Shown in pieces: positions 48,980-49,873 of a DNA stretch of 64,000 bases. Position 1 is the stretch's first letter; every line of letters starts with the position of its first letter. Origin of the DNA: a virus; the IMG/VR virus record IMGVR_UViG_3300043449_002191, positions 1 through 64,000 of that record. The stretch is one strand, 5' to 3'. The notes under the pieces were generated by a model that was given only the letters and a program-made list of their open reading frames with translations, was not told where the DNA came from and searched no databases. A program made the translations under genes and the position numbers.

Positions 48980-49058
48980 AGCGGAGTGGACTGGAAGTAG
49001 TGCCAGCTCAGGCTCATAACCTGAATTCATGGAGGTGCAAGTCCTCCCTCCGCAACCA
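48980..49058 (+). tRNA. tRNA-Met(CAT), probably initiator type
   Basis: AGCGGAG/CTCCGCA acceptor with 1:72 mismatch; TCAGG-CTCATAA-CCTGA; T-arm GGAGG-TGCAAGT-CCTCC; encoded CCA. Confidence 0.9.
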
Positions 49059-49295: not shown

Positions 49296-49304
49296 TGCTA
49301 TAAT
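49296..49304 (+). promoter_or_regulatory. Extended -10 promoter for the ncRNA cluster
   Basis: TGCTATAAT directly before the GGA hairpins. Confidence 0.65.
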
Positions 49305-49309
49305 ACTTC

Positions 49310-49385
49310 TATCAGGATGATACTTGACTTAGGATGAGTCCCCAGGGAAGAGTGTTCTCCAAGCTTATGGAAGAGCTTATTTTTG
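49310..49385 (+). ncRNA. CsrA/RsmA-sponge-like sRNA (GGA-loop hairpins)
   Basis: TATC-AGGAT-GATA; GACTT-AGGAT-GAGTC; CAGGGAAG; AAGCTT-ATGGAA-GAGCTT followed by a U-rich run. Confidence 0.6.
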
Positions 49386-49398
49386 TTTGTATTATTTT

Positions 49399-49637
49399 GA
49401 GACCAAGGCGTGAAGTCGCTGTGGACGTAAAGATCGGTATAGCCATTAAAATTCGTGACAGGCACAATACCCCACTGGGACACGCAGAGAGAAGACAATA
49501 CTCGGAGCCGAATGCGAGGGTAATCGGTGGTGCCTCTTTCGTAAGGTTAACTTTTGCGTCCGGTGCGTAATAGCATAGGATAGCAGCCACTTGAACCTCA
49601 GTACGCTCATAGCCGTGGTAGCGTACGGCTGGTCTCG
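49399..49637 (+). ncRNA. Large tRNA-like structured RNA, copy 1
   Basis: GAGACCA/TGGTCTC closing stem; GCCGT-GGTAGCGT-ACGGC arm; GCTGTGGAC and CCACTGGGACACGCA blocks. Confidence 0.7.
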
Positions 49638-49654
49638 CTTTGTTTATTTTATAT

Positions 49655-49856
49655 GTGGTAGCGGCATGGAGAGCTGTGGACGATAGTGAAGTTGAAATAT
49701 GACCCAAACGAAATCCACTGGAGACACGCATGGAGAATACGGAAGCAGCGATTTACACTAACAGTGCAGGTATCTGAGGTGTATTTTTAGCGGAAGCAGA
49801 CCGACAGTCCGTAGGGGATACGACTATGGAGCCAGAGTAGCGACTGGCCTACCACG
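49655..49856 (+). ncRNA. Large tRNA-like structured RNA, copy 2
   Basis: GTGGTAG/CTACCAC closing stem; GCCAG-AGTAGCGA-CTGGC arm; GCTGTGGAC and CCACTGGAGACACGCA blocks. Confidence 0.7.
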
Positions 49857-49873
49857 CTTTTTTAGGAGGATTT

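Follow-up and report, generated by a model that had tools for sequence, protein, structure and literature searches.

The closest known counterparts of the RNAs described here are RNA1 and RNA2 of phage T5 (NC_005859 misc_RNA, annotated as 'tRNA-like stable RNA with unknown functions') and the species 1 RNA of phage T4, or RNA C (rnaC, NC_000866). These phage RNAs of 120-145 nt have the acceptor/T top half of a tRNA and a folded middle that replaces the anticodon arm, and T5 RNA1 has a Leu-type D-arm as well. A man-made counterpart is the engineered tRNA scaffold of Ponchon and Dardel, in which the acceptor, D and T arms are kept and a foreign RNA is inserted at the anticodon position for processing and stability; it works as an expression device (PMC3753655). 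The window analysed here, bases 1-64,000 of a complete phage genome of 157,341 bases with direct terminal repeats at its ends (IMG/VR record IMGVR_UViG_3300043449_002191), holds a tandem pair of tRNA-shaped units, unit 1 and unit 2, which sit among baseplate genes 340 nt downstream of a tRNA-Met (Table 1). The T5 and T4 RNAs lie in tRNA clusters, whereas the family to which these units belong is dispersed among protein genes; it also differs from them in its 5-bp D-stem and in a second slot for inserts. The family resembles a known but unexplained kind of phage RNA, and its rewired elbow appears to be new.

The original prediction, made from the letters of the window, described the locus as two large tRNA-shaped RNAs of no recognised family. 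The coordinates, the lengths, the 7-bp acceptor stems, the adjacent 5-bp arms with RGTAGCGW loops and the T-rich spacer are all present in the sequence, and both units lack CCA and G3:U70 as it said. Single-sequence folding of units 1 and 2 was not significant against shuffles (z -1.26 and -0.89). The prediction's claim of a selected tRNA-shaped structure was borne out by homologs: in an alignment of 38 copies 98.4% of cells pair, two-sided changes occur in 7/7 acceptor and 5/5 T-stem pairs (12/12 in all), the covariation score was reached by none of 500 shuffles, and slid controls pair at 28-40%. Rfam gave no match, at gathering or E-value level, for the window units or for units in 20 + 12 loci, which agrees with the statement that the family is not a recognised one. 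ARAGORN detects none of the units and finds no tmRNA. The two units and a third copy in the same genome (unit 3) are members of a large phage RNA family without an Rfam match, whose fixed parts are the 7-bp acceptor, the 5-bp T-stem and a tRNA-Leu-like D-arm, and from which the anticodon arm is absent.

A first pattern scan for homologs was too loose: of its 117 records, 2 were real. With the D-side motif as anchor, scans gave 52 distinct copies from viral and metagenomic contigs; since these scans fixed the D-side sequence, the search was repeated with the T-like arm as sole anchor. The repeated scan returned 82 distinct matches that are clear members with a complementary acceptor upstream, and it corrected the first alignment, in which the D-insert helix had looked invariant as an artefact of the search pattern. 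The parsed total is at least 158 distinct units. Model R1 covers the extended subtype only and missed unit 1; a scan of 185,579 genomes, likewise covering the extended subtype only, found two small contigs from metagenome-assembled genomes, probably phage DNA. There was no family match in E. coli genomes and one in plasmids. BLAST of the window units against cultured phages matched only the tRNA-Met, and a minimal member was needed as query; an unannotated copy is present in four cultured phages, namely the Pseudomonas phages Persinger, PotUPM1 and vB_PaeS-D14H and the Ochrobactrum phage POI1126. In Persinger (L307, 1495-1590) about 12 nt separate the stop codon of the integrase gene from the start of the unit, and a terminator hairpin comes after the unit. 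A Burkholderia phiE202-type BLAST match was examined and is not a unit, and Myxococcus phage Mx1, the nearest cultured relative of the present phage by portal protein (46% identity), holds no unit by model or descriptor. On both strands of the 157-kb genome three units, and no more, match the structural descriptor of the fold. Family copies occur across lytic and temperate phages of different hosts, with at most three per genome. No description of the family was found in the literature, and it may be among the 8,495 unnamed IMG/VR models of PMC10690425.

Few features of tRNA, or of most tRNA mimics, are as well conserved as the elbow formed by G18G19 and the TPsiC loop. In the family, D-loop GC or GU and an 8-nt T-loop AGUMRCGH stand in place of G18G19 and UUCRA. 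T5 RNA1 keeps the D-loop GG, and T5 RNA1, RNA2 and T4 RNA C keep the UUCRA T-loop, whereas the family replaces both halves. A GC-GC pairing was predicted first and then tested by a scan that forbade C at D19. By corrected mutual information over 156 chassis rows, D19 and T-loop position 5 show the strongest non-helical covariation, with C-G in 113 rows, U-A in 28 and G-C in 1, and the off-diagonal rows are mostly parsing offsets or G-U. With the T-loop fixed as GC, the D-loop reads GC in 34/34 minimal members (two listed as AG are parsing offsets); with D-loop GU, T-loop position 5 is A in 28/28. The D-loop GG member L317 has C at that position, L349 being the one exception, and in the near-identical D-loop AU members L314 and L328 T-loop positions 5-6 are A and U, so that both pairs have changed. 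These four states imply at least three compensatory switches, and the joint switching of D19 and T-loop position 5 argues that the L-shaped fold is under selection. A weaker second covariation links D-loop position 14 with the base preceding the T-stem. On comparative grounds, each unit is shown to fold as a tRNA top half whose D-arm is docked on the T-loop by a non-standard Watson-Crick contact; as the covariation indicates, a D-loop GC that pairs with an 8-nt T-loop AGUMGCGH takes the place of the universal G18G19/TPsiC elbow. The family members very probably have an L-shaped top half held by this two-pair contact. All three units of the genome have the GC/GC form.

Two features of the elbow are unevenly distributed: C at T-loop position 4 is almost confined to members with a 3' D-loop insert (43 versus 3), and the GU/AC elbow was seen only in minimal members. 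This could reflect structural coupling or shared ancestry. The T4 species 1 RNA (L190, 909-1047) holds AGUAGCGU, the T-loop octamer of the family, twice at internal positions, once as a clean G-C-closed hairpin loop, and the AGUAGCGU loop may be a reusable docking loop.

The chassis is conserved far beyond any insert, unpaired T-loop and D-loop bases included. It could therefore be the effector itself, a decoy for a host reader of tRNA shape (a defence nuclease or sensor, RNase P, the CCA enzyme, a modification enzyme or the ribosome), with the inserts as tolerated bulk; the presence of up to three copies per genome, in lytic and temperate phages of different hosts, would suit such a role. However, a decoy would be expected to retain the canonical elbow and not to replace it, anticodon nucleases would find no loop to bind, and no partner or defence gene is linked to the units. 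We consider a decoy improbable.

The minimal D-arm is a 5-bp stem that closes a 9-nt loop, GAAAGCAGA in 22 of the 29 minimal members. One minimal member, L244, is 92 nt long. This loop starts with GAA and ends with AGA, as do the D-loops of tRNA-Leu and T5 RNA1, and GC replaces the GG of tRNA. The window units carry an optional helix inserted 3' of the D-loop GC, whose pairs show two-sided changes in several members as well as in the unit 1 ortholog; in a few members the insert lies 5' of the GC instead. Whether the D-loop insert lies before or after the elbow dinucleotide, the dinucleotide is always kept, and these are the two spots where tRNA D-loops tolerate a change of length. The "extended D-like arm" that had been taken for shared architecture is really this compact D-arm with an optional insert, which 29/111 members lack. 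Nor is AATAC, read earlier as a shared opening of the middle domain, a family trait: in unit 1 it belongs to a conserved insert, its occurrence in unit 2 is unrelated, and unit 3 lacks it. Likenesses of the motif to signal recognition particle helix 8, 5S loop E, 23S helix 78, the K-turn, riboswitches and ribozymes were dropped, as the minimal members reveal a D-loop that carries an insert. The A-C mismatch in the D-stem of unit 2 was seen in 1/49 members. The alignments show that two slots, the D-loop and the anticodon position, accept inserts. The units have no anticodon arm and cannot read codons.

The insert in the anticodon slot, here called the cargo, measures 30-207 nt across the family and has no common hairpin. 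Compared with shuffles, cargos show a modest gain in folding (median z -0.66, with 77% of values below zero). Homologs of the unit 1 cargo are present in eight other phages, where they never occur outside the chassis and show two-sided changes. In these homologs two covarying helices flank a GAA/AGUA loop, and the distal stem measures 12-118 nt. In L193 and L202 one module fills the anticodon slot, and in L296 it fills the D-loop slot (78-81% over 91-94 nt), and the L274 cargo is a mosaic of two modules otherwise found separately. The relative G001 has an orthologous tandem pair with identical acceptors, in which the core of the unit 1 cargo is kept and the unit 2 cargo is unrelated. Most cargos, those of units 2 and 3 included, have no detected homolog. 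These patterns of sharing show that the inserts are discrete modules, exchanged among phages and from one slot to the other.

Several single cargos and motifs were also recorded. The cargo at L268 1886-1950 is an entire canonical-looking tRNA cloverleaf (Rfam 42 bits), and UUCRA-type hairpins occur in 9/111 inserts versus 1.8 expected. The YrlA-type motif GNCGAAN0-1G has an internal match in the unit 1 cargo and in 3/8 of its homologs, away from the 5' end, and none in units 2 and 3. The unit 2 cargo has three ANGGA motifs (p 0.037, uncorrected), and unit 2 as a whole has four, one of which arises from the D-stem A-C mismatch. A CsrA-sponge role of unit 2 together with the leader upstream of unit 1 is possible on these counts, which are marginal (p 0.04-0.09).

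A constant frame with variable middles had suggested guide or antisense RNAs of the P1 C4 or P4 CI type, whose variable loops would pair with targets. C4 and CI are phage RNAs matured by RNase P. When all six variable segments were compared with the phage's own genome alone, the longest matches were 11-13 nt, no better than those of shuffles. Moreover, the variable parts may be missing altogether or reach 207 nt; they tend to pair internally and are in part conserved modules with covarying helices. No Rfam match was obtained, to the C4/CI models or otherwise; C4/CI antisense RNA was rejected on the lack of complementary sites in the phage's own genome and of a model match. We regard a guide function as very doubtful.

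The reading we favour, in which we place roughly even confidence, is that the family is a natural tRNA scaffold that carries small structured RNAs and is released by the tRNA-maturation enzymes of the host. The units would be transcribed within longer phage transcripts, from which the fixed 12-bp helix and the closed elbow would lead host RNase P and 3' tRNA-trimming enzymes to excise them. For RNase P and RNase Z, what counts is the distance from the elbow along the acceptor/T stack and not the sequence (PMC4919913), and the fixed 7+5 helix with its conserved elbow points to an RNase P substrate; that RNase P and nucleases acting on tRNA 3' ends release the units from longer transcripts is, with some reserve, probable. 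The closed ends would then shield the insert from decay. In the weakest step, the inserts would be effectors, protein-binding or regulatory RNAs that differ between phages, and the altered elbow and missing aminoacylation identity would keep the RNA out of translation.

The ends of the units bear on whether they could be charged. Among 131 members the base after the acceptor stem is unconstrained (A/U/C/G = 50/40/29/12), CCA is encoded in 4 and G3:U70 occurs in 2. The tidy 7/5 acceptor branch, the Leu-type D-loop ends and the fact that A is the commonest base after the stem (50/131) would suit an aminoacylated, non-decoding tRNA-Leu derivative, to which the host would add CCA; leucyl-tRNA synthetase (LeuRS) ignores the anticodon. 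Yet that base is free, encoded CCA and G3:U70 are rare, and the real tRNA of the genome encodes CCA while the three units do not; together these make aminoacylation of the units unlikely. In addition, the G19-C56 pair, which is read by LeuRS, is inverted in the family, and an aminoacylated derivative of this kind is hardly plausible. A tmRNA, which needs G3:U70, CCA and a tag frame, was rejected on the same two counts and on the negative ARAGORN result.

With respect to transcription, 43/111 units start at most 30 nt past a same-strand stop codon, versus 6.6% of random positions, and a start so near a stop codon leaves no room for a promoter of the unit's own. A ribosome-binding site (RBS) and start codon lie within 40 nt after 31/111 units, U-runs come after the stem, and boxA-like sites lie upstream of 9/111 units versus 1.6 when shuffled, mostly in members with a clamped stem. 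All four observations would also be expected of cis-acting punctuation, in which the phage message would be cut, stabilised, terminated or antiterminated at the tRNA shape, as with mascRNA, and the released RNA and its inserts would matter little. Against this, no neighbour gene is conserved across the family loci; tandem pairs spaced 17-18 nt recur in the family, and as punctuation such copies would be redundant. A -10-like site stands directly upstream of 9/111 units, which also counts against punctuation, and cargo modules that are conserved and covary call for a separate function. Punctuation is therefore an unlikely explanation. In seven loci (L237, L240, L243, L246, L256, L260 and L261) leader-trailer pairing extends the acceptor to at least 15 pairs, and 15-25 nt upstream there is a boxA-like CTTTAA[AC]A, an arrangement like that of rRNA leaders or lambdoid early leaders.

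Several points weigh against the scaffold reading. Most cargos are unique, with 5 sharing groups among 111 by BLAST, which would also fit tolerated filler, and their modest degree of structure (the median z given above) is likewise compatible with filler. No cargo matches a known functional RNA. In 35/131 members the flanks prolong the acceptor by at least 6 of the next 8 pairs, by which tRNA-type maturation would be changed or blocked. Finally, the members are related and not independent, so that the pair counts overstate the number of events.

Table 1. Features of the tandem locus and its surroundings, in bases of the phage genome (window: bases 1-64,000)
Feature	Position	Strand	Remarks
Ordinary tRNA-Met(CAU)	48980..49058	+	encoded CCA; 340 nt upstream of unit 1; context, outside the family
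Extended -10 promoter-like site (TGn + TATAAT)	49296..49304	+	read in the sequence, not picked up by a two-hexamer scan; putative function
Probable 5' leader of unit 1, with four GGA motifs (CsrB-like)	49311..49385	+	4 versus 2.2 expected, p 0.08, not significant
Unit 1, whole RNA including base 3' of acceptor stem	49399..49637	+	239 nt; ortholog in relative G001
Unit 1 acceptor, 5' strand	49399..49405	+	7/7 pairs with 49630-49636; covaries across the family
Unit 1 D-arm	49408..49485	+	stem 49408-49412 with 49481-49485; elbow dinucleotide GC 49418-49419
Unit 1 optional D-loop insert	about 49420-49478	+	closing helix 49421-49424 with 49472-49475; both sides differ in ortholog
Unit 1 cargo, anticodon slot	49486..49611	+	conserved module: two covarying helices, GAA/AGUA (bulged-G-like) loop, variable distal stem
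Unit 1 T-like arm	49612..49629	+	5 bp, 8-nt loop; loop positions 5-6 (49621-49622) are predicted partners of 49418-49419
U-rich spacer	49638..49654	+	17 nt; unit 1 trailer and unit 2 leader; G001 spacer in same length class
Unit 2, whole RNA including base after stem	49655..49856	+	202 nt; acceptor 49655-49661 with 49849-49855
Unit 2 D-arm	49664..49729	+	stem 49664-49668 with 49725-49729, one A-C mismatch; elbow GC 49673-49674
Unit 2 D-loop insert	about 49675-49721	+	
Unit 2 cargo	49730..49830	+	101 nt; no homolog among fetched loci; three ANGGA motifs
Unit 2 T-like arm	49831..49848	+	loop positions 5-6 are 49840-49841
U-run, RBS (49864-49869) and start codon	49857..49876	+	101-aa gene without confident family
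Unit 3, third family copy in the genome (G000)	72044-72233	minus	

In the window, the transcript that includes unit 1 probably starts at about 49311, as judged from the promoter-like site. The tRNA-Met(CAU) begins at the base directly after the stop codon of the baseplate gene and has an initiator-like 1:72 mismatch; it was found by a local Rfam scan and missed by the whole-window Rfam scan. The complete genome holds no gene for TROVE (Ro60), CsrA or a CCA-adding enzyme, and no TROVE gene was found among the recurrent neighbour genes tested. The sole recurrent close neighbour is a metallophosphoesterase-family gene, 50-290 nt from the unit in L148, L153, L156 and L144. A different structured element, clamped by GAATGAAC and GTTCCTTGA, adjoins units downstream in L135 and L151 and upstream in L122 and L156; in L135 it stands between two units. 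Between the unit of L120 and the next RBS, immediately past 1605, lies a second structured element, GC-rich and with a GUCGCGC hairpin loop.

Other known RNAs were compared with the family. Of the features of canonical tRNA (RF00005), a 7-bp acceptor on a 5-bp T-stem is present, and the 5-bp/7-nt anticodon stem-loop, G18G19 and UUCRA are absent. With class II tRNA-Leu (RF00005) the family shares the 7/5 acceptor branch, the two-base linker, the GAA...AGA ends of the D-loop and ordinary tRNA-type T-stems; it differs in having no anticodon arm, G18G19, UUCRA or CCA, an 8-nt T-loop and a free discriminator. The engineered scaffold has a canonical elbow and one slot, whereas the family is natural, with a rewired elbow, two slots and predicted processing. 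YrlA and other bacterial and phage Y RNAs are non-decoding tRNA mimics too, found in phages and substrates of RNase P, but they have a closed, permuted acceptor on a Ro60-binding stem, a canonical T-loop and an adjacent Ro60 gene (PMC4201824). Allo-tRNAs and the tRNA-like domain of tmRNA resemble the family as unusual tRNA-like folds with a 12-bp acceptor branch. Allo-tRNAs have an 8/4 or 9/3 branch and decode (PMC5389517), and they were rejected as a match, the family being 7/5 by covariation and without an anticodon.

In its fullest form, the scaffold reading describes a modular scaffold with an orthogonal elbow that the host would mature like a tRNA and translation would ignore, and from whose two slots exchangeable functional RNAs would be delivered, some of them against host regulators or defences. 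We offer this only tentatively. A widespread family with a rebuilt elbow, proved by compensatory switches, shows which part of the tRNA shape its readers need. The tRNA-like RNAs of T4 and T5 have been annotated as of unknown function for decades, and more than 150 varied copies, a predicted tertiary pair that can be mutated and copies in cultured phages make the question testable. If the cargos are effectors, the family would be a store of small phage RNAs that annotation has missed, and an expression scaffold ready for use.
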